Positions 1 through 58,943 of a stretch of 63,854 nucleotides of DNA are shown here, in pieces. A program made the position numbers and the translations under genes. Below the pieces are notes generated by a model. The model searched no databases, was not told the DNA's origin, and saw only the letters and a program-made list of their open reading frames with translations. The DNA is from Squalus acanthias (lineage: Eukaryota). The stretch lies in NCBI GenBank assembly GCA_030390025.1, contig JASTWF010000048.1, positions 147 to 64,000 of the forward strand, in the 5' to 3' direction. The stretch's first letter is position 1; each line of letters opens with the position of its first letter.

Positions 1-89
1 TACTCACGGACCCTGTGTTTCCTGTCTCCACAGGGTCAGCAGAGGGCGCTCTAGGACTATGCAACACTACTGTTGCTGAAACAAGATTT

Positions 90-420
90 AATCGGAACAG
101 GAGGAGGCCATTCAGCCCCTCGAGCCTGTTACACAGGAACAGGAGGAGGCCATTCAGCCCCAGGAGCCTGTTACACAGGAACAGGAGGAGGCCATTCAGC
201 CCCTCGAGCCTGTTACACAGGAACAGGAGGAGACCATTCAGCCTCTCGAGCCTGTTACACAGGATCAGGAGGAGGCCATTCAGCCCCTCGAGCCTGTTAC
301 ACAGGAACAGGAGGAGGCCATTCAGCCCCTCGAGCCTGTTACCATAGGAACAGGAGGCGGCCATTCAGCCCCTCGAGCCTGTTACACAGGAACAGGAGGA
401 GGCCATTTAGCCCCTCGAGC
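90..420. repeat. 42-bp minisatellite ACACAGGAACAGGAGGAGGCCATTCAGCCCCTCGAGCCTGTT
   Basis: Tandem units; source of the RNRRRPFSPSSLLH / QEQEEAIQPLEPVT ORFs. Confidence 0.92.
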
Positions 421-754
421 CGTCCTATCCGATCAAAGCTCATTTGTACCTCAGTCGCATTTGAGACTGTTCTGGATTCGCCCACCAGAGGAAATAATTT
501 CTCTGTATCGTCCCTATCGGATCATTTTAATATTTGAAACACCTCATTCAGTTCACCCCTCAATCTCCAAACCTCAAGTGGATGCAAGCCAAGTTGTTAT
601 GCAACCTGTCCTCAGCAATTAGCGCGCTAAGCCCCCAATATCGCTTCAGTGAATCTGCGCTGCACCCCCTCCAAGGCCAATATATCCTCCCTGAGTTGCG
701 GTGCCCAGGACTGAACGCATTTGCTCCAGATGGAGTCTGACCAGGGCTCGGTGC

Positions 755-1210
755 AACTTTTTTGTTTATTCGTTCACAGGATGTGGGCGTTTCTGGCAAG
801 GCCGTCATTTTAGCCCATCCTCCAATTGTGATGGTGACATGCCTTCTTGAACCGCTGCCGTCCGTGTGGTGAAGATAGTCCCACAGTGCTGATTCTGTTG
901 TCGTGGGTTGGTACAACTGAGTTGCTTTTTGGGTCAGAAGGCAGTTAAGAGTCAACCACAATTTCTGTGGGTCACATATAGACCAGACTGGGTAAGGACG
1001 GCAGATTTCCTTCACCTAAAGGACATTCGTGAACCAGTGGGGTTTTGTACAACAATCCGGTCGCCATTACTGAGACCAGATTTATCTAATTAACTGAATT
1101 TAAATTCCCCAGCTGCCAGTGCTGGGATTTGAACTCACGTCTACTGACATCATTAACCCAGACCTCTGGATTACTTGTCCAGTAACATAACCACTATGCT
1201 ACCGTACCCC
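755..1210 (-). mobile_element. tRNA-derived SINE (related pieces 12810-12935, 22570-22695, and 61068-61370 on +)
   Basis: Head GGTAGCATAGTGGTT (A box) ... GAGTTCAAATCC (B box). Confidence 0.65.
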
Positions 1211-1332
1211 ATAAATTGATACATCACTTCCACCCCTTTGTATTCCAGCGCACTTGAGATACATGACAACATTCCATTAGCCTTATCAATTATTTTTGTA
1301 ACTATTTTTAGTGCTTTGAGTGCATGGATCCC

Positions 1333-3340: not shown

Positions 3341-3573
3341 TCTGCTCTATTCAATGTCAATAAGTGAGGGAGGGGCGGGGCTGTTAATCAGAGAGGGAGG
3401 GGCTTTGTCTGTCAATCAGAGAGGGAGGGGCGGGGCTGTCCAACCCTGCATCACCACCTCATGCTCAGCATGTTTTCGTCAATGATTTGTAAAAGAGCGG
3501 GTTGGATCCTCACAAGACACAACTCTCCTGTTCTCGCTCCTTTCATTATTAAGAGAAAAGCTTCCAGTAAAAG

Positions 3574-4017
3574 ATGTATCTGTTACTGGGACTAATTATC
3601 TTGTTTCACAGTAAGGGGGATTATTTCCAGCAATAATTCTTTTTTAATATCCTTTCTTTCATTCATTCTCCCATTCCCCATAATGCCCCTGTTTGCTGAC
3701 CTGCTCCTGTCTCTTTCCCAGACGTGAAGTCGCAGACTATCCGCCAGACTCCCGCCGCTGTCTCCAGATTTCCCGGGGAGGGTGTGGAACTGAATTGCGA
3801 TGTGAAGGGCAGCAGCAACCCTCGCATGTTCTGGTACAGACAATACCCGGGGAAGGAGCCGCTGCTGATGTTTCTCTCCCCAATTGCACAAAGTGTGACT
3901 CCAGAGGGGACGGTGGACGGTTTTACCGCCGAGCGACCGAATGGCAACGAGTTCAACCTGAAGTCCTCCAGCCTGCAGGCGAATCACTCGGCCGTGTATT
4001 ACTGCGCCTGGAGTCTT
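3574..4017 (+). CDS. TRBV: TCR beta V segment, family A (TRBV30-like), intact (V1)
   Basis: Leader 3574-3610 (MYLLLGLIILFH, phase-1 GTAAG); V exon 3722-4017 SQTIRQ..C..WYRQ..YYCAWSL; RSS CACAGTG(4018)-23 bp-ACAAAAACT(4048-4056). Confidence 0.93.
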
Positions 4018-4652
4018 CACAGTGACTCAGAGAGATGGAGGAGCTGAACAAAAACTCCAAAGGCGGCAGGAGACACCTGCTTAAGATAAAACCGCGCACA
4101 GCTGTTGGGTTTATTTTGCAGAGCGAATGTGTTTTTGACAACAAGAAGAGACGGGTTAGAATAAAAGTGAGAGATTAGATATAGAGGCACTGGAGAAGGT
4201 ACAAAGAAATATTAACAAGTATGACACCAGAATTGAGAGTTTCTGGCTATCAGGAAATAATGAACAGGCTCGGGCTGTTTTGTCTAGAAATGTGAAGGCT
4301 GAGGGGTGACCTGACAGAGGTCTTTAAAGATGATCAATGGATTTGATAGGTTAGGCGTAGAGAGGAAAGATATAAAGAAAGGAAGATTGAAAGAACAAAA
4401 GAATGAAAGATAGGAAGAAAGAGGGAAATAAATAAATGAAGAAGGAAAGAAAGATATAATGTAAGAACGAAATAAAGTAAAAAGAAAGGATGGAAGCAGG
4501 GAAGAAAAAAGAGAAGGAAAGAAAGATAGAGAAAAGAAAAAGATAGAAAGACAGAACGATAGTAAAAAAAGATAGAACGCAATGTAAAAAGATGGAAAGT
4601 AATTAAAAGTACTTTTTTTATACACTGACATTGTGCTTTCTTTCTCCACAGG

Positions 4653-4668
4653 GACAGTAGAGGGCGCT
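4653..4668 (+). promoter_or_regulatory. CTCF-type motif downstream of V unit (one of ~16 paralogous sites)
   Basis: GACAGTAGAGGGCGCT; paralogues at 35, 7367, 9975, 12677, 14840, 24704, 27007, 32465, 34334, 37155, 39493, 45842, 48068, 55318, 57498. Confidence 0.7.
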
Positions 4669-4711
4669 CTAGACCATGAAACACACCAGTGCCCGGAACA
4701 TTGTTCAATCG

Positions 4712-5200
4712 GAACACAGGAACAGGAGGAGGCCATTCAGCCCCACGGGCCTCTAACACAGGAACAGGAGGAGGCCATTCAGCCCCTCGAGCCTGTTACA
4801 CAGGAACAGGAGGAGGTCATTCAGCCCCACGAGCCTCTTACACAGGAACAGGAGGGGCCATTTAGCCCTTCGAGCCTGTTACACAGTAACAGGAGGAGGC
4901 CATTCAGCCCCACGAGCCTGTTACACAGGAACAGCAGGAGGCCATTCAGCCCCTGGAGCCTGTTACACAGGATCAGGAGGAGGCCATTCAGCCCCACGAG
5001 CCTGTTACACAGGAACAGGAGGAGGCCATTCAGCCCCTCGAGCCTGTTACACAGGGACAGGAGGAGGCCGTTCAGCCCCTCGAGCCTCTTACACGGGAAC
5101 TGGAGGAGGCCATTCAGCCCCACGAGCCTGTTACACAGCACCGGCAGGAGGCCATTCAGCCCCACGAGCCTGTTACACAGGGACAGCAGGAGGCCATTCA
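4712..5200. repeat. 42-bp minisatellite array (paralogues 7426-7960, 10032-10440, 24762-25210, 27105-27410, 32522-32635)
   Basis: Same unit, always just 3' of the CTCF-type motif. Confidence 0.92.
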
Positions 5201-6220: not shown

Positions 6221-6226
6221 CCTCAC

Positions 6227-6830: not shown

Positions 6831-8835
6831 CGAACATGTTTTTGACCAGAAGAATATACGGGTTCGAATAAAAGTGAGAGATTAGATATAGAGGCACTGG
6901 AGAAGGTGCAAAGAAGGATTAGCAAAGGATAATGCCAGAATTGATAAGTTTAAAATATCAGGAGATTCGAAAACAGGCTGGTGCTCTTTTCTCTAGAAAA
7001 GAGAAGGCTGAGGGGTGACCTGACAGAGGTCTTAAAAGATTATCAATGGGTTTGATAGGTTAGACGTAGGGAAGAAAGATAGAAAGAAAGGAAGATAGAA
7101 AGTATAAAAGTAAGAAAGATAGGAAGAAAGAGGGAAATAGATAAAGGAAGAAGGAAAGAAAGGAAGATATAATGAAAGAACGAAATAAAGAAAAAAGAAA
7201 GGAAGGAAGCAGGGAATAACGAAGAGAAGGAAAGAAATATAGAGAAAAGAAAGAAAGGTAGAACGGCCGAACGATAGTAAAGAAAAATAGAAAGAAATAT
7301 TTAAGAAGGAAAGTAATTAAAAGTACTTTTTTTATACACTGACATTGTGCTTTCTTTCTCCACAGGGACAGTAGAGGGCGCTCTAGACCATGAAACACAC
7401 CAGTGCCCGGAACATGGTTCAATCGGATCACAGGAACTGTCGGAGGCCATTCAGCCCCACGAGCCTGTTACACAGGAACAAGAGGAGGCCTTTCAGCCCC
7501 ACTAGCCTCTTACACAGGAACAGGAGGAGGCCATTTAGCCCCACGAGCCTGTTACACAGGAACAGGAGGAGTCCATTCAGACGCCTCGAGCCTGTTACAC
7601 AGGAACAGGAGGAGACCATTCAGCCCCTCGAGCCTGTTACACAGGAACAGGAGGAGGCCATTCAGCCCCACGAGCCTGTTACACAGGAACAGCAGGAGGC
7701 CATTCAGCCCCTGGAGCCTGTTACACAGGATCAGGAGGAGGCCATTCAGCCCCACGAGCCTGTTACACAGGAACAGGAGGAGGCCATTCAGCCCCTCGAG
7801 CCTGTTACACAGGGACAGGAGGAGGCCGTTCAGCCCCTCGAGCCTCTTACACGGGAACTGGAGGAGGCCATTCAGCCCCACGAGCCTGTTACACAGCACC
7901 GGCAGGAGGCCATTCAGCCCCACGAGCCTGTTACACAGGGACAGCAGGAGGCCATTCATCCACTTGCGTCAGCTCTGCCTTTTAATCTGTGTTTCAGCCT
8001 CATTAACCCGCCTTTACTGCATATCCCTTGATATCCTAACCCAACATGAATCGATCCAACTCAGCCTTGAGAGCTACAATTGTCCCCCAGCAACCGCAGC
8101 CTTTTGGGGGCGCTAGTTCCATATTTCAAAAGGGAATTGGATAAATACTCGAAGGAGCCAAACTGAAGGGATATGGGGAAAGAGCGGGGGAGTGGGATTA
8201 ACTGGATTGTTCTTCGAAAAAGCCAGCGCAGACTCGATGGGCCGAATGACCTCCTTCTGAGCTACACTATTCTTTGATTCTATAAGTTTTTTTCAAAATT
8301 CATAATTTATCAACAGCCGGACTTTATTTGCAATATTGAGGGTCATTAAGGATACCTTGGAAATTATTCCTTCTTCCATTTAGCTCTATATCCTGGCCAC
8401 TCATGTTCCCGCTCAGCGAGTGTTATCTCTGATGTGGGACGGGTTCACTGAAGTCTGAATACTGTGGGGCCGTTTGCAGGTTCCCCAGTCAGGGGCGAGT
8501 CTTTGTGTCATCCTGATCGTCATAAGCCCAACCATGCAATAGAACAGATGTACAGCCTGGTGTGACCCGGATATTGTAGCCCCTCCCCGGTAGCCCCTCC
8601 CCATCTAGCCCACCCCTGCAACACCGCCCGTCCCCTGTAGCCCCTCCCCTGTAGCCCCTCCCCCTGTAACCCCACCCCTCCCCTGTAACTCCTCCCGGTA
8701 GCCCCGCCCCTACCTGTAGCCCCTCCCCCTGTAACCCCGCCCCTCCCCTGTAGCCCCACCCCCAGTAACCCTGCCCCTCCCCTGTAGCCCCACCCCCAGT
8801 AGCCCCGCCCTTTCCCTGTAGCCCCGCCCCCTCAC

Positions 8836-8959: not shown

Positions 8960-11478
8960 TGTTCCCCTTTTCCGCGCGTCGCTCCTGGCAACCGACACTT
9001 CCGGCGTCGAAACGTCACTTCCCCGTCACGTGTCCGGCCTGACGCGTCTACCCTGTCGTGCGGGGGGGGGCTGAATTTAATCATCCAACTCTCCCGGCGG
9101 CGGATCCGCCCAATTACCATAATTCTTTTGTTTTGGAAATCCGCGTTTCGTTTTTTTAATTTAAAAATTGGCGCTGGCGCACTGGCGCCCAAACGCCGCC
9201 TGGCCGTGACGTTATTTCAAATTGTCCATGTTAGCCAGATTGCCATTTTTTTATTTTTTTTATGTTTGCTCCTCATGAAAGAAACAAATCGGTGGAGAAG
9301 CTTTTATTTGCAGGGAAACAATTAAATGGGGGAAGAGGGGAGAATTGGGTGCGCAAGCGCGGCGGTCGGCGTGCGCCGCCATGTTTCATAAAGGCGCAGC
9401 CCGCCGCACTGCGTGACCGGCCATCTTTGAGATTGGCACGAACATGTTTTTGACCAGAAGAAAATACGGGTTCGAATAAAAGTGAGAGATTAGATATAGA
9501 GGCACTGGAGAAGGTGCAAAAAAGGATTAGCAAAGGATAATGCCAGAATTGAAAAGTTTAAAATATCAGGAGATTCGAAAACAGGCTGGTGCTCTTTTCT
9601 CTAGAAAAGAGAAGGCTGAGGGGTGACCTGACAGAGGTCTTTAAAGATTATCAATGGGTTTGATAGGTTAGACGTAGGGAATAAAGATAGAAAGAAAGGA
9701 AGATAGAAAGTATAAAAGTAAGAAAGATAGGAAGAAAGAGGGAAATAAATAAAGGAAGAAGGAAAGAAAGGAAGAAATAATGAAAGAACGAAATAAAGGA
9801 AAAAGAAAGGAAGGAAGCAGGGAAGAAAGAAGAGAAGGAATGAAAGATAGATAAAAGAAAGAAAGGTAGAACGGCAGAACGATAGTAAAGAAAAATAAAA
9901 CGAAATATAGAAAGAAGGAAAGTAATTAAAAGTACTTTTTTATACACTGACATCGTGCTTTCTTTCTCCACAGGGACAGTAGAGGGCGCTCCAGATCATG
10001 AAACACACCAAAGCCCGGAACATGGTTCAATCGGAACACAGGAACAGGAGGAGGCCATTCAGCCCAACGAGCCTCTTACACAGGAACAGGAGGAGGCCAT
10101 TCAGCCCCGCGAGCCTGTTACACAGGAACAGGAGGAGGCCTTTCAGCCCCTCGAGCCTGTTACACTGGAACAGCAGGAGGCCATTCAGCCCCTCGAGTCT
10201 GTTATACAGGAACAGGAGGAGGCCATTCAGCCCCTCGAGCCTGTTACACAGGAACAGGAGGAGGCCATTCAGCCCCGCGAGCCTGTTACACAGGAACAGG
10301 AGGAGGCCATTCAGCCCCCTCGAGCCTGTTACACAGGAACAGGAGGAGACCATTCAGCCCCTCGAGCCTGTTACACAGGAACAGGAGGAGACCATTCAGC
10401 CCCCTCGAGTCTCTTACAGAGGATCGGGGGGAGACCATTCATCGACCTGCGTCAGCTCTGCCTTTTAATCTGAAATTCAACCTCATTAACTCGCCTTTGC
10501 TGCATATCCCTTGATATCCTAACCCAACATGAATCGATCCAACTCAGCCTTGCGAGCTACAATTGTCGCCTTGCATCGGTAGCCTTTTGGGGGCGGGAGT
10601 TCCAGATTTCAAAAGGGAATTGGATAAATACTCGAAGGAGCAAAACTGCAGGGATATCGGGAAAGAGCGGTGGAGTGGCACTAACTGGATTGTTCTTCGA
10701 AAGAGCCAGCGCAGACTCGATGGGCCGAATGACCTCTTTCTGTGCTACACTATTCTGTGATTCTCTTATTTTTTTCAAAATACATATTTTCTCAACAGCC
10801 GGACTTTATTGGGAATAATGACTGTCATTAAGAACACCTAGGAAATTATTTCCTCTTCCATTTAGCTCTATATCCCTAGCCAATCACGTTCCAGCTCAGC
10901 GAGTGTTATCTCTGATGTGGGACGGGTTCATTGCAGTCTGAATACAGTGGGGCCGTTTGCAAGTTCCCCAGTCAAGGGCGAGTCTTTGAGTCCTCCCGAT
11001 CATCATAGGCCCAACAATGCAATAGAACAGATGAACAGCCCGATGTGACCCGGATATTATTGCACCGACTGCCTCACGTTATCAAAAGCGCTTACTGTGG
11101 ACCAGTGTTGTCCATGTGTTAGCCACTAGTCGCATGTGGCTAATTGGGAATCAAGGTATGGCTAATTGTGAATCTACATGTGGCTAATCGGGAATCCAGA
11201 CGTGGATAATTTCATTTCTGATGAGCAAACAATAAACGAGCGATAGACGCCGTTGTTGGGAATGTTAACGGCATAAGGTCCAGTCAGTCATTGGTAATTA
11301 GCATGCACATCGATTCTGATCGGTTCGCTCGAGGAAGGGGCGTGTCCAACCCTGCATCACCTCCTCACGGTGCTCAGGGTTTCTTCAATGATTTTTAAAG
11401 AGCGGGTTGGCTCCTCACAAGACTCCACGCTCCTGTTCTCGCTCTTTGAATTATTTAGAGAGACGCTTCAAGTAAAAG

Positions 11479-12028: not shown

Positions 12029-13357
12029 CACAGTGACTCAGAGAGATGGAGGAGCTCAACAAAAACCCCAAAGGCGGCAGGAAACACCTGTGACTGATGA
12101 AACCGCGCGTTGCCTCGACCTGTTGGGTTTATTTTACAGAACGAAGGCGTTTTTGACAACAAGAAGAGACGGGTAAGAATAAAAGTGAGAGATTAGATAT
12201 AGAGGCACTGGCGAAGGTACAAAGAGAGATTAAAAGGATGACACCAGAATTGAGAGGTTCTAGCTATCAGGAAATGCTGGACAGGCTCGGGCTGTTTTTC
12301 TCGAAAGGAGAAGGCTGAGGGGTGACCTGACAGAGGTCTTTTAGGATTATCAATGTGTTTGATAGGTTAATGTAGTGAAGAAAGATAGAAGGAAAGGAAG
12401 ATAGAAAGAATAAAAGAAAGAAAGATAGGAAGAAAGAGAGAAATAAATAAAGGGAGAAGGAAAGAAAGTAAGAAATAATGTCAGAACAAAATAAAGAAAA
12501 AAGAAAATAAGGAGGCAGGGAAGACAAAAGAGAAGGAAAGAAAGATAGAGAAAATAAAGAATGAAAGATAGAAAGACAGAACGATAGTGAAGAAAAATTG
12601 AACGAAATATAGAAAGAAGGAACTAATAAAAAATCCTTTATTTATACACTGACATTATGCTTTCTTTCTCCACAGGGACAGTAGAGGGCGCTCTAGACCA
12701 TGAAACACATCAGTGCCCGGAACTTGGTTCAATCGGAACACAGGAACAGGAGGAGGCCATTCAGACCTACACGAGCCTCTTACACAGGAACAGGAGGAGG
12801 CTATTCAGATTTATCGAATTAACTGAAATAAAATTCCCTAGTTGCAGTGGTGGGATTTGAACTTTCAGTCTCCAGATTATTTGCCCAAGGCTCTGGATAA
12901 CTGGCCCAGGAACATAACCACTATGCTACCATACCTCATCAACTTCCACCCCTTTGTATTCCAGCCCACTTGAGATATAAGACAACATTCCATTAGCCTT
13001 ATAAATTATTTTTGTACCTATTATTAGTGCTTTGAGTGCATGGGCCCCTAAATTCCTTTGCTCCTCCACATTTCCTAGTTTTTCATCATTTAAAAATACT
13101 CTGATCTAACATTGTTAGGTCCAAAGTTGATGACCTCACACTTGACCACTTAGCCCCTTGAGGCTGTTACCAAGGAACAGGAGGAGACCATTCAGCCCTT
13201 CCAGCCTGCTCCGCCATTCAGTTACATCCTGGCTGATCGTTATTTAAATCCCTCTGCCACTGTTTTGCCCACTCACTGAATCTGCCTATATCGACATCGG
13301 AACTCCCTGTTCCCTCTGCTCCATTCAATGCCAATCAGAGAGGGAGGTGTGGGGCTG

Positions 13358-14531: not shown

Positions 14532-14894
14532 CACAGCGACGCAGAGAGATGGAGGAGCTGAACAAAAACCCCAAAGCCGGCAGGAAATACCTGTGGGGGA
14601 TTGAATTGTGCAGTGCCGCGACCTGCTGTTTTATTTTTACAGAGCGAACGTGTTTTTGAGAAAAAGAAGAGAAGGGTTAGAATAAAAGTGAGTGATTAGA
14701 TACAGAGGCACTGGAGAAAGTGCAAAGAAAGATTAACAAGGATGACACCAGTACTGAGAGTTTGCAACTGTCTGGAAAGTATAACAATAAAAAGACTTTC
14801 GCCTTTCGTCTCCAACACTGTGTTTTCTGACTCCACAGGAACACCAGAGGGCGCTCTATGAGCATAAAACACTTCTGTTACGAGAACATAGTTG

Positions 14895-24106: not shown

Positions 24107-26250
24107 CACAGTGACTCAGAGAGATGGAGGAGCTCAACAAAAACCCCAAAGGCGGCAGGAAACACCTGTTTACGATAAACCGCGCGGTGCTGTTCGGTTT
24201 ACTTTGCAGAGCGAAAGTGTTTTTGACAACAAGAATATACGGGTTAGAATAAAATTGAGATATTAGATATAGAGGCACTGGAGCAGATGCAAAGAAAGAT
24301 TAACAAGGATGGCACTAGAATTGAGAGTTTCTAGCTATCAGGAAAGGCAGAACATGCTCGAGCTGTTTTGTCTAGAAAAGAGAAGGTTGAGGTGTAACCT
24401 GACAGAGGTCTTTAAATATTATCAATGGATTTGATAGGTTAGGCGTAGTGAAGAAAGATAGAAAGAAAGGAAGATAGAAAGTAGAAGAGAAAGAAAGATA
24501 GGAAAATAAAGGGAAATAAAGAAAGAAAGAAGTTAAGAAAGGAAGAAATAATGTAAGAACAAAATAAAGAAAAACAAAGGATGGAGGCAGGGAAGAAAAG
24601 AGAAGAAGATAGAGAAATGAAAGAAAGAACGAAATATAGAAAGATGGAAAGTAATTAAAAATCCTTTTTTATACACTGACATTGTGCTTTCTTTCTCCAA
24701 AGGGACAGTAGAGGGCGCTCTAGACCATGACAAGCTCCAGTGCCCAGAACATGGTTCAATCTGAACACAGGAACAGGAGGAGGCCATTCAGCCCCACGAG
24801 CCTGTTACACAGGAAGAGGAGGAGGCCATTCAGCCCCACGAGCCTGCTACACAGGAAGAGGAGGAGGCCATTCAGCCCCTCGAGCCTGTTACACGGGAAC
24901 AGGAGGAGACCATTCAGCCCCTCGAGCCTGTTAAACAGGAAGAGGAGGAGGCCATTCGGCCCCACGAGCCTGTTACACAGGAACAGGAGGAGGCCTTTCA
25001 GCCTCTCGAGCCTGTTACACGGGAACAGGAGGATACCATTCAGCCCCTCGAGCCTGTTAAACAGGAGCAGGAGGAGGCCATTCAGCCCCTCGAGCCTGAT
25101 TACACAGGAACAGGAGGAGGCCAAACAGCCCCTCGAGCCGGTTACACAGGAACAGGAGGAGTCTATTCAGCCCGTCGAGCCTGCTACACAGGAACGGGGG
25201 GAGGCCATTCATTCACTTGCGTCTGCTCTGCCTTTTAATCTGTAATTCAACATCATTAACCCGCCTTGCTGCATATCCCTTGATATCCTAACCCAACATG
25301 AATCTATCCAACTCAGCCTTGGCAGCTCCTATTGTCCCCCAGCATCCGCAGCATTTTGGGGGCGAGAGTTCCATATTTTAAAAAGGGAATTGGATAAATA
25401 CTCGAAGGATCAAAACTGCAGGGATATGGGGAAAGAGCGGGTGAGTGGGAATAACTGGCTTGCTTTTCGAAAGAGCCAGTGCAGACTGCATGGGCCGAAT
25501 GACCTCCTTCTGAGCTACATTATTCTTTGATTCTATGAGTTTTTCAAGATACTTAATTTCTCAAAAGCCAGATTTTTTGGGAATAATGTGGGTCATTAAA
25601 GAAACCTAGCAAATTATTCCTTCTTCCATTTAGCTCTATATCCGTGGCCATTGAGCTTCCAGCTCAGCGAGTGTTATCTCTGATGTGGGACGGGTTCACA
25701 GCAGTGTGAATACAGTGGGGCCGTTGGCAAGTTCCCCAGTCAAGGGCGAGTCTTTGTGTAATCCTGATCGTCATAGGCCCAACCATGTAATAGAACAGAT
25801 GAGCAGCCCGATGTGACCCGGATATCGTTGCACCGACTGCCTCGCGTTATCAAAAGGGCTTACTGTGGACCAGTGTTGTCCATGTGTTAGCCACTAGTCA
25901 CAGGTGGCTAAATGTGAATCACGGTTTGGCTAATTGGGAATCTACTTGTAGCTGTTCGGGAATCCAGACGTGGATAATCTCATATCTGATTAACAAACAA
26001 TAAACGAGCGATAGACACCGTTGTTGGGAATGTTAACGTTATAAGGTCCAGTCAGTCATTGGTAATTAGCAAAAAACACATCGATTCTGATTGGTTCGCT
26101 CGAGGAAGGGGGCGTGTCCAACCCGGCATCACACCCTCACTCTGCTCAGGGTTTCCTCAATGATTTTTAAAGAGCGGGTTGGTCCTCACAAGACTCCACG
26201 CTCCTGTTCTCGCTGCTTTCAGTTATTAAGAGAAACGCTTCACTTAAAAG

Positions 26251-34033: not shown

Positions 34034-34689
34034 CACAGTGACTCAGAGAGATGGAGGAGCTCAACAAAAACCCCAAAGGCGGCAGGAAACACCTGTGGGG
34101 ATTGAATTGCGCAGTGCCGCGACCTGCTGTTTAATTTTTACAGAGCGAACTTGTTTTTGACAACAAGAGACGGGTTATAATAAAAGTGAGAGATTAGATA
34201 TCGAGGCACTGGAGTAGGGGGCAAGAAGGATTAACAAGGATGATACCAGAACTGAGAGGTTTTAACTATCTAGAAACAGAAACAGTAAAAGGCTTGGTTT
34301 TTGTCCACTGACTCTGTTTTGTTTCGCCAAAGGGACAGCAGGGGGCGCTCTAGGACCATGAAGGAAACATTGTCCTGGAGCAGGGTTCAAAAGAGCACAG
34401 AAAGTGGAGGAGGTCATCCAGCCACTCGAGCTTATTGCACACGAACAGGAGGACGCCATTTAGCCCCTCGAACCTGTTACATATATCCAAAAAACAGGAA
34501 GCTATTTAGCCCCTCGAGCCTGTTACATATATCCAAAAAACAGGGAGCTATTTAGCCCCTCGAGGCTGTTACATATATCCAATAAAACAGGAAACCATTT
34601 AGCCCCTCGAGCCTGTTACATATATCCAAAAAACAGGAAGCTATTTAGCCCCACGAGCCTGTTACAAAAGAACAGGAGGAGACCATTCA

Positions 34690-36588: not shown

Positions 36589-37982
36589 CCAAAGGCGGCA
36601 GGAAACACCTGTTTAAGATAAAACCGCGCTGTGCTGTTGGGTTTATCTTGCAGAGCGAACATATTTTTGCCAAGAAGAATTGAAGGGTTGGAATTAAAGT
36701 GAGAGATTAGATATAGAGGCACTGGAGAAGGTGCAAAGAAAGATTAGCAAAGCTAATGCCAGAATTGAGAGGTTTATAAAGTATCAGGAAATTCTGAACA
36801 GGCTGGCGCTTGTCTTGGAGTATTATCAGTGGGTTTGATAGGTTAGGCGAAGGAGAGAAAGATAGAAAGTAAAGAAGATAGAAAGTATAAAAGAAAGAAT
36901 GCAAGCCGGGAAGAAAAAGGAAAATAAATAAAGGAAGAACGAAAGAAAGGAAGAAATAATGGAAGAACGAAATAAAGAAAAAGACAGGATGGAAGCAGGG
37001 AAGAAAAAAGAGAGGGAAAGAAATATAGAGAAAACAAAGAAAGAATGATAGAAAGGCAGAACGATATAAAGAAAAATAGAACGAAATATAGAAAGAGGGA
37101 AAGTAATTAAAATTACTTTTTATACACTGACAATCTGCTTCCTTTCGCCACGGGCACAGTAGAGGGCGCTCTAGACCATGAAACACACCAGTGCCCGGAA
37201 CATGGTTCAATCGGAACACAGGAACAGGAGGAGGCCGTTAATCCACTTGCGTCAGCTCTGCCTTTTAATCTGTAATTCAACCTCATATCCCTTGATATCC
37301 TTTATTTACAATAATGAGGGTCATTAAGGAGACCTAGGAAATTATTCCCTCTTCCATTCAGCTCTATATCCGTGGCCACTCACGTTCAAGCTCAGCGAGT
37401 GTTGTCTCTGATGTGGGACGGGTTCACTGCAGTCTGAATATAGTGGGGCCGTTTGCAAGTTCCCCAGTCAAGGGCGAGGCTTTGTGTCCTCCTGATCGTC
37501 ATAGGCCCAACCATGCAATAGAACAGATGAACAGCTGAACAGCCCGATGTGACCTGGTTATTGTTGCACCGACTGCCTCACGTTATCAAAAGGGCTTACT
37601 GTAGACCAGTGTTGTCCATGTGTTAGCCTCTAGTCACATGTGCCTAATTGGGAATCAAGGTATGTCTAATTGGTAATCTACATGTGGCTAATCGGGAATC
37701 CAGACTTGGATAATGTCATTTCTGATTAGCAAACAATAAACGAGCGACAGACACCGTTGTTGGGAATGTTGACGGCATAAGGTCCAGTCTGTCATTGGTA
37801 ATTGGAAAGCTCATCGATTCTGATTGGTTCGCTCTTGGATGGGGCGTGTCCAACTCTGCATCACTTCATCACTCTGCTCAGGGTTTCCTCAATGATTTTT
37901 AAAGAGCGGGTTGGCTCCTCACAAGACCCCACGCTCCTGTTCTCGCTGCTTTCATTATTAAGGGATATACTTCACGTAAAAG

Positions 37983-38573: not shown

Positions 38574-39659
38574 CACAGTGACTCAGAGAGATGGAGGAGC
38601 TGAACAAAAACCCCGAAGCCTGCAGGAAACACCTGTTTGAGTTTAAACCGCGCGGTGCTGTGTCATGTTGGGTTTATTTTGCAGAGCGAACTTGCTTTTG
38701 ACAAGAAGAGGAGTCGGTTTAGATTTAACGTGAGAGATTAAATATAGAGGCACTGGAGAAGTTGCAAATAAAGAATAACAAGCGTATTACCAGAACTGAG
38801 AGGTTATAACTATCACGAAATGCTGAAAAGGATGGGACTACTTCCTCTAGAAAAGAGAATGTGAAGAAGTGACCTGATAGAATTCTTTAAAATTATGAAG
38901 CGGTTTCAGAGTGTAGATGTAGTTATATTTATGACTCCAAGATTTGCTCTTCCATTTGTTTGGGAAACCAAAACTTGGGCCCATAATATAAGCGACTCAC
39001 TAATAAATCCAGTAGGGAATTCAGGAGAAATTTCTTTATTCATGGAGTGGGTACCACAGGGAGTGGTTGAGGCGAATAGCATAGATGCAGTTAAGGCGAA
39101 GCTGGATAGGTGCATGAGAGAGAAAGTAATAGAAGGTGATGCTGATAGAGTACAGCATCAACCCATACTGTGGTGAAGTGTTGAGCACATTCAGTTAGCA
39201 GAGGGCAAGGGTTTTAATAGGTCAAACCGGTTCCGACCACAACAAATAAAATTATCAAATTAAAATATGAAAGAAAGAAATATAGAATGACAGANNNNNN
39301 NNNNNNNNNNNNNNNNNNNNNNNNNNNNNNNNNNNNNNNNNNNNNNNNNNNNNNNNNNNNNNNNNNNNNNNNNNNNNNNNNNNNNNNNNNNNNNNNNNNN
39401 NNNNNNNNNNNNNNNNNNNNNNNNNNNNNNNNNNNNNNNNNNNNNNNNNNNTGGTTTTTATACACGTGCAATGTGCTTCATTTCTCCACAGGGACAATAG
39501 AGGGCGATCTAAGACCATGAAACCCACCAGTGCATGATTGAATCGGATCAGAAATGTAGATTCAGCCACCTCAAACCCCTCCACCGTTGAATCAGATCAT
39601 GGCTGATCTGTATCTTAGCTCAATTTACCCATGTTGATCAAAGAATTTAAGAAATAGTA

Positions 39660-42673: not shown

Positions 42674-43594
42674 ATGTTTCATGGAGCTTGTTATCTAACG
42701 TTGATGGTGGCACTGATCCCACGTAAGTCAAAGTAACAAACTTATGCAGGGATCTTTGTAGAATAATGTATTATAATGTCAGCTCTTGTTCAGCTGGTAG
42801 AAACCTTGCCTCGGAATCAGAGGTTTTGGGATCGAGTCTTACTCCTGAGACTTGAGCACAAAATCTATGCTGGCACTCCCGAGACCAGCGCTGAGGGAGT
42901 GCTACACTTTTGGAGGTGCATCTTACAGATAAGGCGTAAAACTGAGCTGCCCTCTCAGGTGGAAGTAAATGATCCCAGGGCACTATTGGAAGAACAGCAA
43001 TGAAGTTGTCGCCGGTGTCCTGGGCCAACATTAATCCCACCACAATCAACAAAAAAACAGATGTACTGGTCATTTATTTCAAGGCAGTATTTGGGAGCTT
43101 GCTGTGCTCAAATTGGTTGTCTCCTTTCCTACATTACAACAATGACTACACTTTAATCTGTACTTCATTTGTTGTAAAGAGTTTTGTGAGTTTCTGAAAT
43201 CGGGAATGCTCTTTATGAATGGAAGATCTTTTTCTCTGTAGTCCGCGCTCAAATAAATTATTGACAAAAATAAGAAACTAATCGATGTTACTTTCGACAG
43301 AAATACTCTCCTCGTACGTGGAGCAGTCGCCTTCTATCCTTTCGATTGGAACAGGAGAGTCCACCACGCTCAGATGCACGCTGAAGAATACTGGCTATAC
43401 CTTTATGTACTGGTACAGACAACAACCCGACCGGGCATTAGAAGCTCTTTTCTATTCTGCAGGAGCAGGAGCTGTTACGAAACACACGACCGAGTCTTTT
43501 AAGGCAGAAAGAAGCAGCACTACGCTGTTTACTTTGGAACTGAGCGCCGCCTCTCCGTCTCACACCGCTGTCTATTACTGTGCTTGTAGTATCG
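42674..43594 (+). CDS. TRBV: TCR beta V segment, family C (ends YYCACSI), intact (V13)
   Basis: Leader 42674-42722 (MFHGACYLTLMVALIP, GTAAGT); V exon 43301-43594; RSS CACAGCG(43595)-23-ACAAAAACC(43625-43633). Confidence 0.9.
42775..43240 (+). mobile_element. Deu-domain SINE (SacSINE1/AmnSINE1-like) in family C leader intron; paralogue ~52360-52820
   Basis: CTGAGGGAGTGCTGCAC..GCCCTCTCAGGTGGACGTA..GATCCC..GCACTATT, recalled Deu-domain core. Confidence 0.65.
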
Positions 43595-43668
43595 CACAGC
43601 GTTTGAGAAAGCGGCTCCCCAGCTACAAAAACCTGCAGCGGATGAATGGCAGTTCAGTGCTCATTTTT

Positions 43669-43688
43669 CGCCACCAGGTGGCAGCACT
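43669..43688 (+). promoter_or_regulatory. CTCF motif ~35 bp 3' of the V13 RSS
   Basis: CGCCACCAGGTGGCAGCACT, near-consensus CTCF core; degenerate paralogue ~53238. Confidence 0.8.
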
Positions 43689-44990: not shown

Positions 44991-47077
44991 GCTGCTTTCT
45001 CGAGAAAAGAGAACACTGAGGGGTGAGCTGACAACCAAAATTATGAAAGAAGTTCGATAGGATAGATGTAGGGAACATGCTTCCACTTCCGGGGAAGACC
45101 AAAGCTCAGGGTCATAAATATAAGATAGTCACTAATAAGTCCAAATAGGGAATTCAGGAGAAAACTGTTTACCCAGAGAATGGCGAGAATGTTGAACTCG
45201 CGACCACAGGGAGTAGTTGAGTCGATTAGCATAGGTGCAGTTAAGGGGACGCTGGATAAGCATATGGGGGACAAAGGAACAGAAGGCCATGCTCATCGGG
45301 CACAACATCAACACATCCTGTGCTGAAATGTTGATCACATTCAGTCATCCGAGGTCATTAGCTTTCAGTGGTAGGTGTAGTTGGTTCTGAGCAAAACAAA
45401 TGAAAATAATCAATGCAAAAAGAAAGAAAGGAATGAAGAAAAGAAAGAAGGAAATAAAGATATAAGTAAAGCAGGATAGAAGGATATAATGATAGAGAAA
45501 GAAAAAGAAAAGGATAGAGAAAGAAAGAACGAAAGAAAGAAAGGAAGAAAGAAAGAAGGAAAGAAAGAAAGACGGAATGAAAGAGAGAATGAAAGGTTTA
45601 GAGAATAAAGAAAGACAGAAAGAAAGAGAGACAAAGAGAGAAGGAANNNNNNNNNNNNNNNNNNNNNNNNNNNNNNNNNNNNNNNNNNNNNNNNNNNNNN
45701 NNNNNNNNNNNNNNNNNNNNNNNNNNNNNNNNNNNNNNNNNNNNNNNNNNNNNNNNNNNNNNNNNNNNNNNNNNNNNNNNNNNNNNNNNNNNNNNNNNNN
45801 NNGGTGGGTTTTTGTCGACTGACGCTGTGGTTCTCCACAATGACAGCAGAGGGCGCTCTAGGACTATGAAAGACATCAGTGCCTGGAACATGGTTTAATA
45901 GGAACACAGGAACAGGAGGAGGACATTCAGCTCTTCAAGCTTGCTTCGCCATTCAATTAGATCATAGCTGGATCTTATCTTCAATCCATCGACCCGCTTT
46001 TGCTCCCTTTCTCTTGATCTGCTTACCCAAGAAAACATCTATCAATCTCGATCAGCAGATCTCCAATTGGCCGCTGGCACGCACATCGTTTTCGGGCAGA
46101 GAGTTGAAGATTCTCACTGCCCTTTGTGTGAAGAAGTGCTTCCTGCCCTCACGCCTGAAACGCTGAGCTCTCACTGTAAAGTTATGCCTCATTGTTCTGG
46201 ACTCCGCCACCAGTGGACATACTTTCATTCTATCTACGCAATCAACTCCTTTTAACAATAAAAGACTAAATCAGTTCACCCCTCAATCTTCTATACTCAA
46301 GGGCATACAAGCCCAGTCTATACAACCTGCCTTCATAATTTAACCCTCTAAGCATTCTGGTGAATCTGTCTTGCACTCCCTCCAAGGACAAAACGTCCTT
46401 CCTGAGGTGTGTTACCCAGAACTGAACCTATTTTGCCAGATGGAGTCTGACCGGGGCTCTGCCCAACTGAAGCATAACTTCCTCCCTTTTGTATTCCAGC
46501 CTCTTTGACATAAAGGCCAACATTGCATTAATCTCTTTGATTCATTTTTGCACCTCTATCCTTGCTTTTAGTGATTTGTGTACCTGGCCAACTTAATTTA
46601 TTTGTTCGACAGTTTCCAGCTTCTCATCAGTTAGAAAACATTATGATGTTTATTCCTCAGGCCCCCAGTGGATGAGCTCATACTTGCCCACGTCCCACGT
46701 TAAACTCTACCTGCCGCTGTTTTTTTCTCATTCACGTAAGTTGTTTAGGTCAACTTTGCAACTTCCTGCTCCCGTTTGCTCCACTTACTGCCAAACAGAG
46801 AGGGAGGGGCTGGACGGTCAATCAGTGTCGGGGGCGGAACTGTGTTTCACGGAGTGAGGGCGAGTCTGTCAATCAGCGTGGGAGGGGCGTGGCTGTCAAC
46901 CAGCCTGGGAGTGGAGGAGCGGTGTTGTCAGTCAGAGAGGGGCGGGGGGCCTGAATCACTTCCTTATGCTCGTCATGGTTTCCGGAATGACTTGAAAAGA
47001 GCGTGTTGGGTCCTCACAAGACTCAACGCTCTTGTTTTCGCTGGTTTGATTTCTAAAAGTAAATCTTGAAGTTAAAG

Positions 47078-47582: not shown

Positions 47583-49452
47583 CACAGTGACTCAGAGAGA
47601 TGGAGGAGCTGAACAAAAACTCCCAAAGGCGGCAGGAAACACCTGTTCGAGATAAAACTGCTCTGCGCTGAGTCCTGTGAGGTTTAATTTATGCAGAGCG
47701 AACATGTTTTTGACAAGATCAAGTAGCGGGTTCCAATAAAAGTGAGAAAAAGAGAAAAAAGGCACTGAGTAAATTGTAATGAAAGATTACGTTACATGGA
47801 GTGAAGAGCGATAGAACGAAAGGAAGATAGAAAGAAAGAATGATACAAAGATGGAAACAAGGCAGAAACGAAAGGATGATAGAAAAAAAGAAAGACAGAC
47901 AGAATGTAAGAAAGATGAAAGAAAGAAGAAAGACAGAAAGGAAGGAAGGAAGAAAGAAGAAAAACAAAACATTTAAGAAACAATGACAGAATGATCGAAA
48001 GAAGCAAAGGATGTAAATAGACTGTCGGGATTTTACACACTGACAGTGTGTTGTCTTTCTCCACGGAGACTGAAGATGGCGCTCTAGTAACATGAACTGC
48101 ACGGTTGCTTGTAATACGGTTTAATGTGGAATAGAAGAGAGGTCATTTAGTCCCGCTCATGCTGTTTCATAGGAACAGGACAAGTCCTTTAGCCCCTTTA
48201 GGACCGTGTACACAGGCACAGGAGTAGACCCATTCAGCCACACGAGCCTGTTACACAGGATCAGGAGGAGGCCATTCAGCCCCTCGAGACTGCAATGCCA
48301 GCCAGTGAGATCATGGTTGATGTGTATCTTCATTCTATCTAACCGCATTTGCTCCATGAACCTCGATACACTTACCCAACAAATATCTATCAATCACAGT
48401 CTTGAAAGCTCCAATTGACCCTCAGCCTTAAAAGATTCTGGGAGGAGAGCTTTCCACATTTCCACTACCATTCTGTGAAGAGGTGATTTTTGACACAATG
48501 CCTGAACGACGTAACTCTACGATTAAGGTTGTTCCACTTAGTTCTGGACTCCCCCACAGGAGGAAATAGTTTGTCTCCATCTACCCTATCAACTTATTTT
48601 AACATTTACAAAACGCAATCAGTTCAGCACTGAATGTTCTATACTCAAAGTAATATAGGCCAGGTTTTGCAATCCTTCCTCATAATTTAATCCTCTTAGT
48701 CCCGGCTATCAGCCTGGTGAATCTGCGCTGCATCCCATTAGAACATAATATGTCCTTCCTGAGGTGCGGTACCCAGAATTGAACTCAGTATTCTAGATTG
48801 GATCTGACCAAGTCTCTATACGAAAGAAGAATAAATTCCGGCCCTTTATATTCCAGACCCCTTGAGAGAAAGGACAACATCCCTTTAGCCTTTTTGATTC
48901 CTTTTTTCCCTTTCTACCGGCATTTAGTGATTTGTTTACCTTGGCAGTTAAATCCCCTTGCTCCTCCGAAATTCCTAGCTTAACACGATTTAGAAAATAC
49001 TCTGATCTATCTTTCTTAGATCCCGAGTGGATGACCTCGAACTTGCCCAATTCTTCCACTGTTCCTTCTTCCACTATTTTGCCCGCTCACTTAATCTCTC
49101 TGTCCCCATTCCAACTCCCGGTTCCCAGCTGATCTACTTACTGCCAATCAGAGACTGAGGGGCCGGGCTGTTCATTGGAGACAGTGGGGAGGGGCCTTCA
49201 ATCAGAGAAATATGACGGGGGAATTAAATATGGAGGGCGGACGGGGCTATCAATCATCGAGTGAGGGGCGGGGCTGCCAGTCATGGAGGGAGGGGCGGGG
49301 CATTGTATGTTCAATGTTATCTTATGAGTGATAGAGAACGTTGCCGTTTACACGCGCCAGTTCGGACCTTGCACACAACAGTTTCATTGCTCCAGTCTCT
49401 GGACAGCTTGTTGGTCGAGGGGCTCCCGATCTCAAACCCTCTGTCTCGGACA

Positions 49453-53180: not shown

Positions 53181-53486
53181 CACAGCGTTTGACAAAGCGG
53201 CTCCCCCGCTACAAAAACCTTTTCAGTGCTCATTTTCCGCCACCAGGTTACCGCACGAGATATTAGTTCAGTGTTTGATTTCTACTTCACTCCTTCCCCG
53301 CCACTCCTCTCTCCAACTGCTTCGTCTCCCACCCCTCGCATCCCCTATTCCCTCCTCTGCCCTCCCCGCATGAAATGACTGGGGACAAGATGGTGAGGCG
53401 TGTAGTCTGACATCAAACGTCATCCACGCCCCGCAACAAGTAATAAATCCGTGCACTTGTGATTGAATCAGGAGGAGTGGAGGGGG

Positions 53487-54384: not shown

Positions 54385-54717
54385 ATGTATCTGTTACTGG
54401 GTCTGCTGAACTTGTTCCACCTGAAGAGAAATTTTCAAACAGTAATGATTGTTAACAACCTCCATTTACTTTCTTTCTTTCTTTCTTTCTATCTATCTTT
54501 CTGTCTTTCGCTCTTGCTCCCATTCCCCATTGCCCGAATGACCCTGTCTACTGACCTCCTCCTCTCCCCGTCTCTTTCCTGGATGTGAGATCGCAGATTA
54601 TCCGCCAGACTCCCGCCGCAGTCTCCAAATTACCCCGGGAGCGTGTGGAACTGAAATGCTATGTGAAATCTGTCAGTAACCATAACATGTTCTGGCACAG
54701 GCAATACCCGGGGAAGG
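54385..54717 (+). pseudogene. TRBV: TRBV family A pseudogene, truncated in FR2 (V18)
   Basis: Same breakpoint and splice lesions as V14. Confidence 0.85.
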
Positions 54718-56548
54718 CTGCTTTCTCTAGAAAAGAGAAGACTGAGGCGTGAGCTGATAGCGAAAATTATGAAAGGTGTTCGATAGGATAAATGTAGGGA
54801 AGATATTTCCACTTGTGAGGAAGACCATGCTCGTGGTCATAAATATAAGATAGTCACTAATACGTCCAAATAGGGAACTCAGGAGAAAACACTTTACCCA
54901 GACAATGGCGAGAATGTTGAACTCGCTACCACAGGGAGTAGTTGAGACGAATAATATAGTTGCAGTTAAGGGGTAGCTAGATAAGCACATGGGGGGTGAA
55001 AGGAATAGAAGATCGTGCTGATCGAGCACAACATCAACCTGTCCTGTCTGAAGTGTTGAGGACATTCAGTCATCCGAGGTCAATGGCTTTAAATGGTAGG
55101 TGAAGTTCCCTCTGAGCAAAACAAATGAAAATAATCAATGCAAAAAGAAAGAAAAGAAGGTATGAAAAAAGAAAGAAAGAGGGAAATAAAGATTAAAGTA
55201 AAGAAGGAAAGAACGATATAATGGGAAGGGAAAAAACGATAGAAAAAGAAAGACAGAAAGAAAGAAAGTAAACACACGGGTGGGTTTTGGTCGACTGACG
55301 CTCTGTTTCTCCAAAAGGACAGCAGAGGGCGCTCTAGAACCATGAAAGACATCAGTGCCTGGAACATAGTTTAATAGGAACACAGGAACAGGAGGAGGCC
55401 ATTCAGCTCTTCAAGCCTGCCGCGCCATTTAATTTGGTCATAGCTGGAACTTATCTTAAATCCATCGAGCCGCTTTTGCTCCCTATCTCTTGATCTACTT
55501 AGCCAAGAAAAAATCTGTGAATCTCGGTCTAGAAATCTTCAATTGACAGCCAGCACGCTCATCGTTTTCGGGCAGAGAGTTGAAGATTATTTCTGCCCTT
55601 TGTGTGAAGAAGTGCTTCCTGCCCTAACGCCAGAAAGGCTTAGCTCTCACTGTAAAGTTATGCCCCGTTTTTCTAGACTCCGCCACCAGTGGACATACTT
55701 TCATTCTATCTTCCCTATCAACTCCTTTTAACATTAAAAGACTGAATCAGTTCACCCCTCAATCCTCTATACTCAAGGGTGTACAAGCCTAATCTGTACA
55801 ACCTGTCTTCATAATTTAACCCTCTAAGCCCTGGTATCATTCTGGTGAATCTGCCTTGTCCTCCCTCCAAGGACAAAACATCCTTCCTGAGGTGCGGTCC
55901 CCAGAACTGAACCTAGTTTGCCAGATGGAGTCTGACCAGGGCTCTGTCCAACTGAAGCACAAATTCCTCCCTTTTGTATTCCAGCCTCCTTGACATAAAG
56001 GCCAACATTCCATGAAGCTGTTTGATTCTTGTTTGCCCCTGGCTTTTAGTGATTTGTGTACCTGGCCAACAAAATGTCTTTGCTCCTCGACAGTTTCCAG
56101 CTTCTCATTAGTTAGAAAATACTCTGATGTTTCTTCCTCAGGCCCCCAGTGGATGACCTCATACTTGCCCACGTTCCACGTTAAACTCAACCTGCCGCAG
56201 TTTCTTCTCATCCACGTAAGTTGTTTTGGTCAACCTTGCAACTTCCTGCTCCGGTCTGCTCTGCTTACTGCCAAACAGAGAGGGAGGGGCTGGACTGTCA
56301 ATTAGAGTGGGAGGGGCTGGACGATGTTTCAGAGAGTGAGGGGGCGGGTCTGTCAATCAGCGTGGGAAGGGGTGGGGCTGTGAATCAGCCTGGGAGTGGA
56401 GGAGCGGTGCTGTCAATCAGAGAGGGAGGGGCCTGCATCACTTCTTTCCGCTCGTCAATGATTTGAAAAGGGCGGGTTGGATCCTCACAAGATTCAACGC
56501 TCTTATTTTTGCTGATTTCATTTTTGAAAGTAAATTTTAAAGTAAAAG

Positions 56549-57053
56549 ATGTATCTGTTACTGAGTCTCATGATCTTATTTCAATGTAAGTGATTTTTTC
56601 ATACAATAATCTTTGTTAATAACCTTTCTTTAATCTTTCTTTCTTTTTTTCATTGTTTCCTTCATTCTCTCTTTCTCTCGTTCTTTACTTCTTTCTTCCT
56701 CTACAAACCAGAATGCTCCTGTTTACTGACCTCCTCCTTTCCCCGTCTCTTTCCCAGACGTGAACTCAGAGACGGTCAGCCAGACTCCCGCCGCCCTCTC
56801 CAATATTCCTGGGGATGGAGTGGATATAAAGTGCGACGTGGAGGGTGCCAGTAGCGGTACCATGTCCTGGTACAGACAGGACCCGGGGAAGGGACCGCAA
56901 TTGATGTTTTACTCCGGGGCTACCAATCACGTGGATCCAGAGGGGACGGTGGACGGTTTCACCGCCAAACGACCGAATGGCAACGAGATCAATCTGAAGT
57001 CCGCTAGCCTGCAGGCGAATCACTCGGCCGTGTATTACTGCACCTGGAGTCTT
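56549..57053 (+). CDS. TRBV: TCR beta V segment, family A (ends YYCTWSL), intact (V19)
   Basis: Leader 56549-56585; V exon 56758-57053; RSS 57054-57092. Confidence 0.9.
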
Positions 57054-58943
57054 CACAGTGACTCAGAGAGATGCAGGAGCTCAACAAAAACCCCAAAGGC
57101 GGCAGGAAACACCTGTGGATGATGAAACCGCGCGGTGCCGCGTCTTGTTGGGTTTATTTTACAGAGCGAACCAGCTTTTGACAAGAATAACAGATAGGCT
57201 GGAATAAAAGCGATAAATTAGATTTAAAAAAGACACTGGAGAAGCGGCAAAGAAAGATAAGTTAAATATAGTGAAGAACGATAGAACGAAAGGAAGATAG
57301 AAAGACAGAAGGAAAGAATGATATAAAGAAAGAAACAAGTCTGAAAAGAAGGAAAAAAGGATGAAGGATAGACAGAAAGAAAGGAAGAAAGATACACAGA
57401 AAGAAAGGAAGCAGGAAAGAAAGATAGAAAGAAGGAAATGAAGTAAAAAGATTTTCGAGCTTTTACTCACAGACACTGTGTTTTCTTTCTCCACAGAGAC
57501 TAAAGAGAGGGCTCTAGGACCATGAACCACACAGTTGCTTGTAATATGGTTTAATATGGAATAGAAGGCGGTCATTCAGTCCCCTTGAGCCTAATACATA
57601 GGAACAGGAGAAGGCCATTAAGCATCCTCGAGACCGTATACACAGGTACAGGAGAAGGAGCATTTAGCCACATAAGCCTGTTACACAGTAACAGGAGGAG
57701 TCCATTCAGCCCCTCTAGTCTGTTACATAGGAACAAGAGAAGGATATTCATGCCCTCGAGTCTGCTCTGCAAGCCAATTAGATCATGGGTGATGTGTATA
57801 TTCCTTCTGTCCAACCGCATTTGCTGCACATACCTCGATAATCTTACCCTACAAATATCGGTCAATAACAGTCTTAAAGGCTCCAATTGTTCCCTCACCT
57901 TCAACATACTCTTGGAGCAGAGAGTTCCACATTTCCACTACCATTGTGTGAACAGGTAGTTTTTCACACAAGGCCTGAACGACCTAACTCTAACTTTAAG
58001 TTGCTCCCCGCTGTTCTGGACTCCCCCACCAGAGGAAATAGTTGCTCTCTATCTAACCTATCAACTTATTTTAACATTTACAAATCTCAATGAGTTCAGC
58101 ACTGAATCTTCTATACTCAAGGTAATATAGGCCATGTTTTGCAATCCTTCCTCATAATTTAACACTCTCAGTCCCGGGTATCAGTCTGGTGAATCTGCGC
58201 TGCATCCCCTCCAAGTCTAATATATCCTTCCTGAGGTGCGGTTACCAGAATTGAACTCAGTACTCCAGATGGGGTCTGACCAATTCTCTATAGGACAGAA
58301 GAATAACTTCCTGCCGTTTGTATTCCTGACCCCATGAGATAAAGGACAACATCCCTTTAGACTTTTTGATTTATTTCCCCCCTATCTACCAGCATTTAGT
58401 GAATTTTTTACCTGTACAGTTAAATCGCTTTGTTTCTCCGCAAATCCTAGCTTAAAACCATTTAGAAAATACTCTGATCTATATTTGTTAGGTCCCAAGT
58501 GCTAGGCCTCGCACTTGCCCACGTTAAATTACTTCTTGCACTGTTTTGCACGTTCACTTAATCTCTAAATCCTCTTTGCAAATCCCGGTTCCCATCTGTT
58601 CTACTTACTGTCAATCAGAGAGGGAGGGGCCGGGCTGTTCATTGGAATCGGTGGGGAGGGGCTGTCAATGAGAGAGGTATGACGGGACAGTCAAACAGAG
58701 AGGGCGGACGGGGCTGTCAATCATCGAGTGAGGGGTGAGATCGTCAGTGATAAAGGGGCGGGGCGGGATTGACAATCATAGAGAGAGGGGCGGGGCATTG
58801 TCCCTTCAGTGTTTTATGAAATAGAGACCGTTGCCGTTTACACGCGCCAGTTTGGGCCTTTCAAACAGCAGTCTCAGTGCTCCAGTCTCTGGGCAGCTTT
58901 TTGGGTCGAGGGGCTCCCGGTCTCAGACCCTCTGTCCCGGACC

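Follow-up and report, generated by a model that had tools for sequence, protein, structure and literature searches.

CTCF-type motifs multiplied with V gene segments in a likely T-cell receptor beta locus of the shark Squalus acanthias

Sharks represent the oldest living lineage with RAG-based receptors. The 63,854-nt stretch of Squalus acanthias DNA analyzed here (GCA_030390025.1, contig JASTWF010000048.1, positions 147 to 64,000 of the forward strand; the window) is a tandem array of variable (V) gene segments, all on the + strand, the intact ones followed by a recombination signal sequence (RSS) with a 23-bp spacer. In its main V family, which ends in YYCAWS and is designated family A in this report, a CTCF-type motif lies downstream of the RSS in a constant orientation. 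Elements of this class are well known in mammals, and the shark sites are a real feature of that class. Judging from the sequence, we consider the chances even that most copies bind CTCF in thymocytes and serve as same-direction cohesin loop anchors, one motif having been multiplied by tandem duplication.

A CTCF-type core in a duplicated island

For motif detection, an approximate position weight matrix resembling JASPAR MA0139.1 was used, and matches at p<1e-5 were classed as strong. The published CTCF consensus CCASYAGRKGGCRS was taken from PMC6746451. An earlier sequence-only reading of this DNA had listed 16 co-oriented sites, and the motif or a degenerate form of it was present at all 16, always on the + strand. 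Thirteen of these were strong (14.3 to 19.1 bits), whereas those at 39493 (p = 2e-5) and 48068 (p = 3e-5) were weak and the one at 57498 was dead (-5.5 bits), being no credible CTCF site. Across the window, the matrix gave 14 strong matches on the + strand and 1 on the - strand (0.68 and 0.53 expected from 40 local shuffles), the latter being the reverse reading of a near-palindromic site at 43668. When at most one mismatch to CCASYAGRKGGCRS was allowed, 14 matches were obtained, all on the + strand (0.58 expected; largest number, 3 in 100 shuffles). These were 13 of the listed sites and a perfect, previously unlisted match at 43671. The three degenerate sites gave no match even at two mismatches, a tolerance that yielded 10 additional matches (9 on the - strand and 1 on the + strand) with about 10 expected by chance.

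Alignment placed all 16 listed sites in one homologous island of about 90 bp. The shared orientation of the family-A sites is thus read as inheritance from one tandemly duplicated ancestor, not as 16 independent sites, and the shuffle statistics are silent on selection. Because the copies are paralogous, these statistics also overstate significance, and they were not used as evidence of selection. What had been taken for many co-oriented sites is a single duplicated element. Likewise, the 14 one-mismatch matches on the + strand have only two independent origins, 13 of them being paralogues.

In a family-A unit, the order is promoter, leader, V exon, RSS, short CR1-like remnant (presumably CR1), optional AAGA microsatellite, island, and 42-bp minisatellite. 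The island follows 13 of the 14 YYCAWS segments and none of the six segments of the other three families, so that the earlier statement that nearly every unit of families A and C has a site stands for the former segments and not for the others. The sole family-A segment without an island lies at 21947-22570, where a family-A promoter and broken V begin fewer than 300 bp 3' of a family-D RSS and the RSS and island of this V were lost by deletion. Two copies, at 7367 and 9975, have no V ahead of them. They sit in 2.6-kb sub-duplications of about 92% identity that have a CpG-rich fragment in place of V and RSS. This CpG-island-like fragment, tandemly duplicated at ~6150-6830 and 8770-9440, occupies the position of the V exon and RSS and contains what we take to be housekeeping-promoter-like motifs (ETS, YY1, and E-box/CRE-like). 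Eight island copies form a young, near-identical group.

Within the window, the island was found in family-A units only. It was also covered by contigs from sequencing runs labeled as three other organisms, possibly close relatives, and at least three contigs of one such run join the CR1 remnant to the core. The summed contig depth at the core bin (1600, 746, and 150) was similar to that of the leader bins and 130- to 380-fold below that of the CR1 bin, although depth is no copy number. The depths hint, if weakly, that the island is specific to V units and is not a dispersed repeat. A metagenome scan with the island pattern returned 0 matches. As for other candidates, a CTCF reading of the islands on the reverse strand was rejected, with best scores below 0, and of 20 plain AGAGGGCG matches, the 7 outside the islands fall in promoter repeats and V exons, none of them qualifying as a CTCF site by score.

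The strongest CTCF-type site of the window, at 43668-43686, was absent from the earlier list. It is located 37 bp after the nonamer of a family-B V segment and is unrelated to the family-A island. Despite being near-palindromic, it scored better on the + strand (23.5 versus 14.5 bits). The upstream motif associated with zinc fingers (ZF) 9 to 11 is, by eye, only partial at this site, with 6 of 10 matches and the central CAGT in register. This site is the sole independent support for the + orientation. Spacing of the RSS-adjacent kind (about 17 to 48 bp from the nonamer) occurs only in the family-B pair (37 and 20 bp), one member of which is degraded.

Constraint on the core

When the 16 copies were compared by parsimony, the core had 0.95 steps per column (0.80 for positions 4 to 18), and the two flanks had 1.57 and 1.81 (p = 0.007 and 0.004). 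In 13 copies, the core had 0.73 steps per column versus 1.30 in a neutral stretch containing CR1 (p = 0.036); the copies at 35, 45842, and 55318 do not have this stretch and were left out of this comparison, the window control, and the 13-copy simulation described below. The 18 inferred core changes cost on average -1.98 bits versus -3.36 bits for random changes (p = 0.033), and p fell to 0.005 without the three changes private to the dead copy. The core CpG was retained in 15 of 16 copies, and the flank CpG in 6 of 15, having decayed to TG or CA in 7. The copies at 34334, 45842, and 55318 have 14 to 15 of 15 core bases in common, while the adjacent 1-kb CR1 remnant of 34334 is 71 to 72% identical to those of the other two. 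When neutral evolution was simulated along a tree built from that stretch, retention of 10 of 13 strong sites was improbable (p = 0.013 to 0.028; overall range, 0.007 to 0.028). The final 42 of the 134 columns behind this tree were treated as non-homologous in 48068 and 57498 and masked there. On these comparisons, constraint on the core appears modest, lineage dependent, and unlinked to the adjacent gene.

The position of the conserved bases bears on a very different explanation, in which a branch-point-like CTGAC, a pyrimidine tract, and CAG serve a V transcript, germline or aberrant, as a 3' splice site, with exon sequence that matches CTCF only incidentally. The look-alike immediately before the core is striking by eye, and an ATG after it starts a frame that extends into the 42-bp minisatellite and reaches 213 codons at most. 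However, only 12 of 16 copies have the AG in register, and its two columns show 2 changes apiece, no better than the flanks. Two of the 16 copies lack the ATG, and in 8 of the 14 that have it, the frame does not exceed 40 codons. Conservation is highest over the CTCF core rather than over the AG, and a splice site is hardly credible.

Several results weigh against bound, functional family-A sites. The first C of CCASYAGRKGGCRS is missing in all 13 strong sites, and the upstream ZF9-11 motif (8 to 9 bp before the core CCA) has 4 of 10 matches in family-A sites and is, by eye, absent. In the window control, 9 of 120 neutral 15-column windows (7.5%) were as conserved as the core, and with the five oldest copies alone on the 1-kb neutral tree, the simulation was not significant (p = 0.12 to 0.25). 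A first simulation (p<=0.001) relied on flank-derived branch lengths that were probably inflated and was judged too optimistic; in addition, the simulation ancestor was inferred from the same data, and gene conversion among paralogues could homogenize the core. Thus, the earlier statement that the core persists where its neighbors have diverged has only moderate support: the core has changed less than the flanks and the neutral stretch, but the oldest copies and the window control do not bear the statement out. Site strength does not follow the genes, either. The nine family-A genes with an open frame and RSS have six strong sites, two weak sites, and one dead site; a strong site is present at all four broken family-A genes with an island; and outside family A, five of the six V genes lack a strong site within 1.2 kb. 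Finally, no D, J, or C (diversity, joining, or constant) segment was seen within the window.

The island may instead be a neutral passenger, that is, an ancestral CTCF-like (or once CTCF) sequence carried in young duplications with little or no present role in recombination. The homology of all 16 copies, the young group of eight, and the two V-less duplications are what such a passenger would leave, as are the decay of the lineage 48068/57498 and of 39493 beside open-frame V genes and the outcomes of the window control and the old-copy test. Slower core change, tolerated substitutions, and CpG retention argue against it, as does the second, unrelated consensus site at a family-B RSS. In general, we regard a passenger as unlikely, though a serious contender. 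If it is one, the array is a caution that tandem duplication alone yields oriented motif arrays.

Possible roles in V gene usage

Loop anchoring, the reading to which we give even chances, would proceed as follows. A CTCF-type motif 0.3 to 0.9 kb 3' of the main-family RSS was multiplied by tandem duplication, and most island copies would be bound by CTCF in thymocytes, as suggested by a motif conserved from lamprey to human and by the CTCF orientation code of skate. Bound islands would act as same-direction cohesin anchors, folding the V array toward D-J-C as in mouse Tcrb, if D-J-C lies 3' of the + strand V genes. They may thereby influence V usage. The anchors would be redundant, serving a neighborhood rather than single genes, because strong sites are retained next to dead V genes and sites have been lost from some intact ones.

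In mouse Tcrb, 18 V CTCF-binding elements (CBEs) point in one direction, convergent with the D-J CBEs (Allyn et al. 2024, PMC10772921), and all V-region sites of mouse Igh and Tcrb face D-J-C (Loguercio et al. 2018, PMC5859386). The CBE of Trbv1 is an extrusion anchor, the loss of which cuts Trbv1 use about 6-fold (PMC10772921). The shark window is similar in being a T-cell receptor (TCR) beta-type V array with many CTCF motifs of one orientation among the V segments, and Trbv1 also has a downstream CBE. However, the mouse sites are proven by chromatin immunoprecipitation (ChIP) and convergent with three D-J CBEs, whereas the shark sites are known from sequence alone. Their density also differs, with 14 strong sites in 64 kb, from one duplicated cassette. 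The shark sites are likened to those of mouse by arrangement, not by sequence homology.

Igh offers a second comparison. As in VH clans II and III of mouse and human, the shark site is 3' of the RSS, would be removed by recombination, is restricted to particular V families, and has a CpG at the core 3' end (PMC6746451, PMC4914699). CTCF state tracks VH clan history (Bolland et al. 2016, PMC4914699), and 77% of the predicted Igh sites are occupied in vivo (PMC6746451). Igh RSS-adjacent CBEs lie at a fixed 17 to 19 or 48 bp from the nonamer (PMC6746451). In contrast, the nonamer-to-motif distance in family A ranges from 261 to 880 bp, changing freely as microsatellites and CR1 sequences are inserted; only the family-B site is Igh-like. 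Measured from the heptamer, the distance was 300 to 919 bp in the 10 units having an RSS, in agreement with the earlier estimate. Nonfunctional mouse VH genes usually have no site, and the shark broken family-A genes retain theirs.

These differences bear on the mechanism put forward in the sequence-only reading, in which each site halts cohesin, letting RAG encounter the RSS of that site as it scans from D-J, as in proximal mouse VH. The location of the site 3' of the RSS, the shared orientation, and the two family-B distances, near those of mammalian VH, fit such a stall. Against it, variable spacing and retention beside dead genes argue that family-A sites do not stall RAG scanning gene by gene. 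Proximal mouse VH pseudogenes have no CBEs (PMC7930373), and the shark broken V genes keep their sites. Furthermore, scanning alone does not explain the CBE effect in mouse Tcrb, where looping plus diffusion-based synapsis is possible (PMC10772921). A stall mechanism for family A is therefore not sustained, and we consider it very unlikely. The 0.3- to 0.9-kb spacing fits loop anchors of the mouse Tcrb type better than RSS-adjacent scanning stalls of the Igh type.

CTCF could also act locally. As an insulator or barrier, it would shield the next V promoter (0.9 to 3.5 kb downstream) from CR1-rich chromatin or read-through without serving as a long-range anchor. The islands are flanked by CR1 remnants and precede the next promoter, and retention beside dead V genes suits a benefit to the next gene. 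Yet the upstream motif tied to insulator activity (PMC12885311) is absent from family-A sites, and an insulator has no need for uniform orientation. We consider this role improbable.

Components of loop extrusion are not restricted to bony vertebrates. Little skate has the loop-extrusion genes, and the borders of its topologically associating domains (TADs) carry oriented CTCF motifs (PMC10115646). Lamprey, chicken, and human share one CTCF motif, and lamprey CTCF binds the mammalian motif (PMC5504073). The shark sites belong to this same motif class; the skate and lamprey data drawn on here deal with TAD borders and Hox clusters rather than antigen receptor loci. In the open-access literature, with subscription papers and supplements outside the scope, no report of CTCF sites in a TCR or immunoglobulin locus of a cartilaginous fish was found, and the literature found on CTCF or loop extrusion at antigen receptor loci was all mammalian. 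The term "CTCF" occurs zero times in a 2026 repertoire-evolution review (PMC13433984).

If CTCF binds the sites and they point toward D-J-C, the use of oriented CTCF anchors at TRB either dates to the jawed-vertebrate ancestor or arose twice. A tentative and rather doubtful extension is that CTCF-guided folding of TCR-beta V genes is ancestral to jawed vertebrates, that two separately evolved forms exist here (a distal, Tcrb-type anchor in family A and an Igh-type, RSS-adjacent site in family B), and that the site-bearing cassette has shaped V-family expansion and usage. The locus is a natural experiment, with close V relatives having strong, weak, dead, or no sites and with usage readable from the repertoire. 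The family-B pair (43668 intact, 53237 degraded) is a natural pair for comparing V usage. The shark-genome paper of Hara et al. 2018 reportedly includes shark CTCF ChIP-seq.

The V array and its neighboring features

A tblastn search inside the window gave 20 V-like segments in four families. Family A comprises 14, nine with an open frame and RSS and five broken, and each of the other three families has two. The V exons carry a leader and a 23-RSS, and the closest single-domain PDB matches of the V segments are TCR beta chains, which supports the earlier assignment to the TRB type. A protein search with one V returned a bamboo-shark hypothetical protein as its sole match (62% identity, without genomic context). 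The locus is likely, but not certainly, shark TCR beta. Coordinates are listed in Table 1.

Table 1. Positions of CTCF-type cores and example units in the window
Feature	Positions	Strand
Family-A island CTCF-type core, 17.5 bits; its V beyond the window edge	33..51	+
Example family-A V gene: leader exon, intron, V exon 3733-4017, 23-RSS at 4018	3574..4056	+
Example island (T-rich tract, core, conserved 3' flank), ~90-100 bp, between AAGA microsatellite and 42-bp minisatellite	4610..4712	+
CTCF-type core, 17.5 bits; RSS 4018, V frame open	4651..4669	+
CTCF-type core, 17.5 bits; V-less sub-duplication	7365..7383	+
CTCF-type core, 17.5 bits; V-less sub-duplication	9973..9991	+
CTCF-type core, 17.5 bits; RSS 12029, V frame open	12675..12693	+
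CTCF-type core, 17.9 bits; RSS 14532, V frame open	14838..14856	+
CTCF-type core, 17.5 bits; RSS 24107, V frame open	24702..24720	+
CTCF-type core, 18.2 bits; RSS 26706, V frame open	27005..27023	+
CTCF-type core, 17.5 bits; 3' of frameshifted V, RSS 31831	32463..32481	+
CTCF-type core, 19.1 bits; RSS 34034, V frame open	34332..34350	+
CTCF-type core, 14.3 bits; 3' of V pseudogene 36273 (stop codon, heptamer lost)	37153..37171	+
Weakened core, 11.5 bits; RSS 38574	39491..39509	+
Family-B V exon and 23-RSS, heptamer 43595	43312..43633	+
Unrelated CTCF-type site, 23.5 bits, perfect consensus 43671-43684; - strand 14.5 bits	43668..43686	+
CTCF-type core, 16.8 bits; 3' of truncated V 44877	45840..45858	+
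Weakened core, 10.6 bits; RSS 47583	48066..48084	+
Degraded paralogue of the 43668 site, 7.4 bits; 20 bp after second family-B nonamer	53237..53255	+
CTCF-type core, 18.1 bits; 3' of truncated V 54594	55316..55334	+
Dead core copy, -5.5 bits; RSS 57054, V frame open	57496..57514	+

The RSS spacer and the first 25 bases 3' of the nonamer are nearly invariant in 10 family-A RSSs (e.g., 12068-12092), including the divergent 47583 and 57054 units. This conserved stretch may be a second RSS-proximal element or a gene-conversion tract. It contains CAGGAAA and CACCTG, which we take to be ETS-like and an E-box, respectively.

Tandem arrays with a 27- to 28-bp unit lie 5' of many V leaders (3355-3440, 13832-13909, 23100-23368, 35546-35806, 41385-41538, 56267-56431, and 63523-63819). 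Each unit contains TGTCAATCA, presumably similar to a PBX/PREP site, and a GC box; TGTCAATCA occurs in 27 copies on the + strand and 0 on the - strand. The copy number of the promoter array ranges from 0 to about 11, and another promoter subtype has one CCAAT-like box instead. At 41674-41830, a family-A promoter and leader exon form an orphan leader, the intron of which enters a repeat with no V exon after it.

No Rfam family matched in the window. The 42-bp minisatellite, which we take to derive from a CR1-like end, was found at 94-421, 4714-5200, 7429-7958, 10036-10441, 16675-17652, 24765-25211, and other positions. It is open in all three + frames and produces spurious Arg/Ser-rich open reading frames (ORFs) of up to 213 aa after the island; such a frame was rejected as a gene. 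On the minus strand, ORF translations at 15087-16600 revealed a reverse-transcriptase and GIY-YIG-like remnant, presumably Penelope-like.

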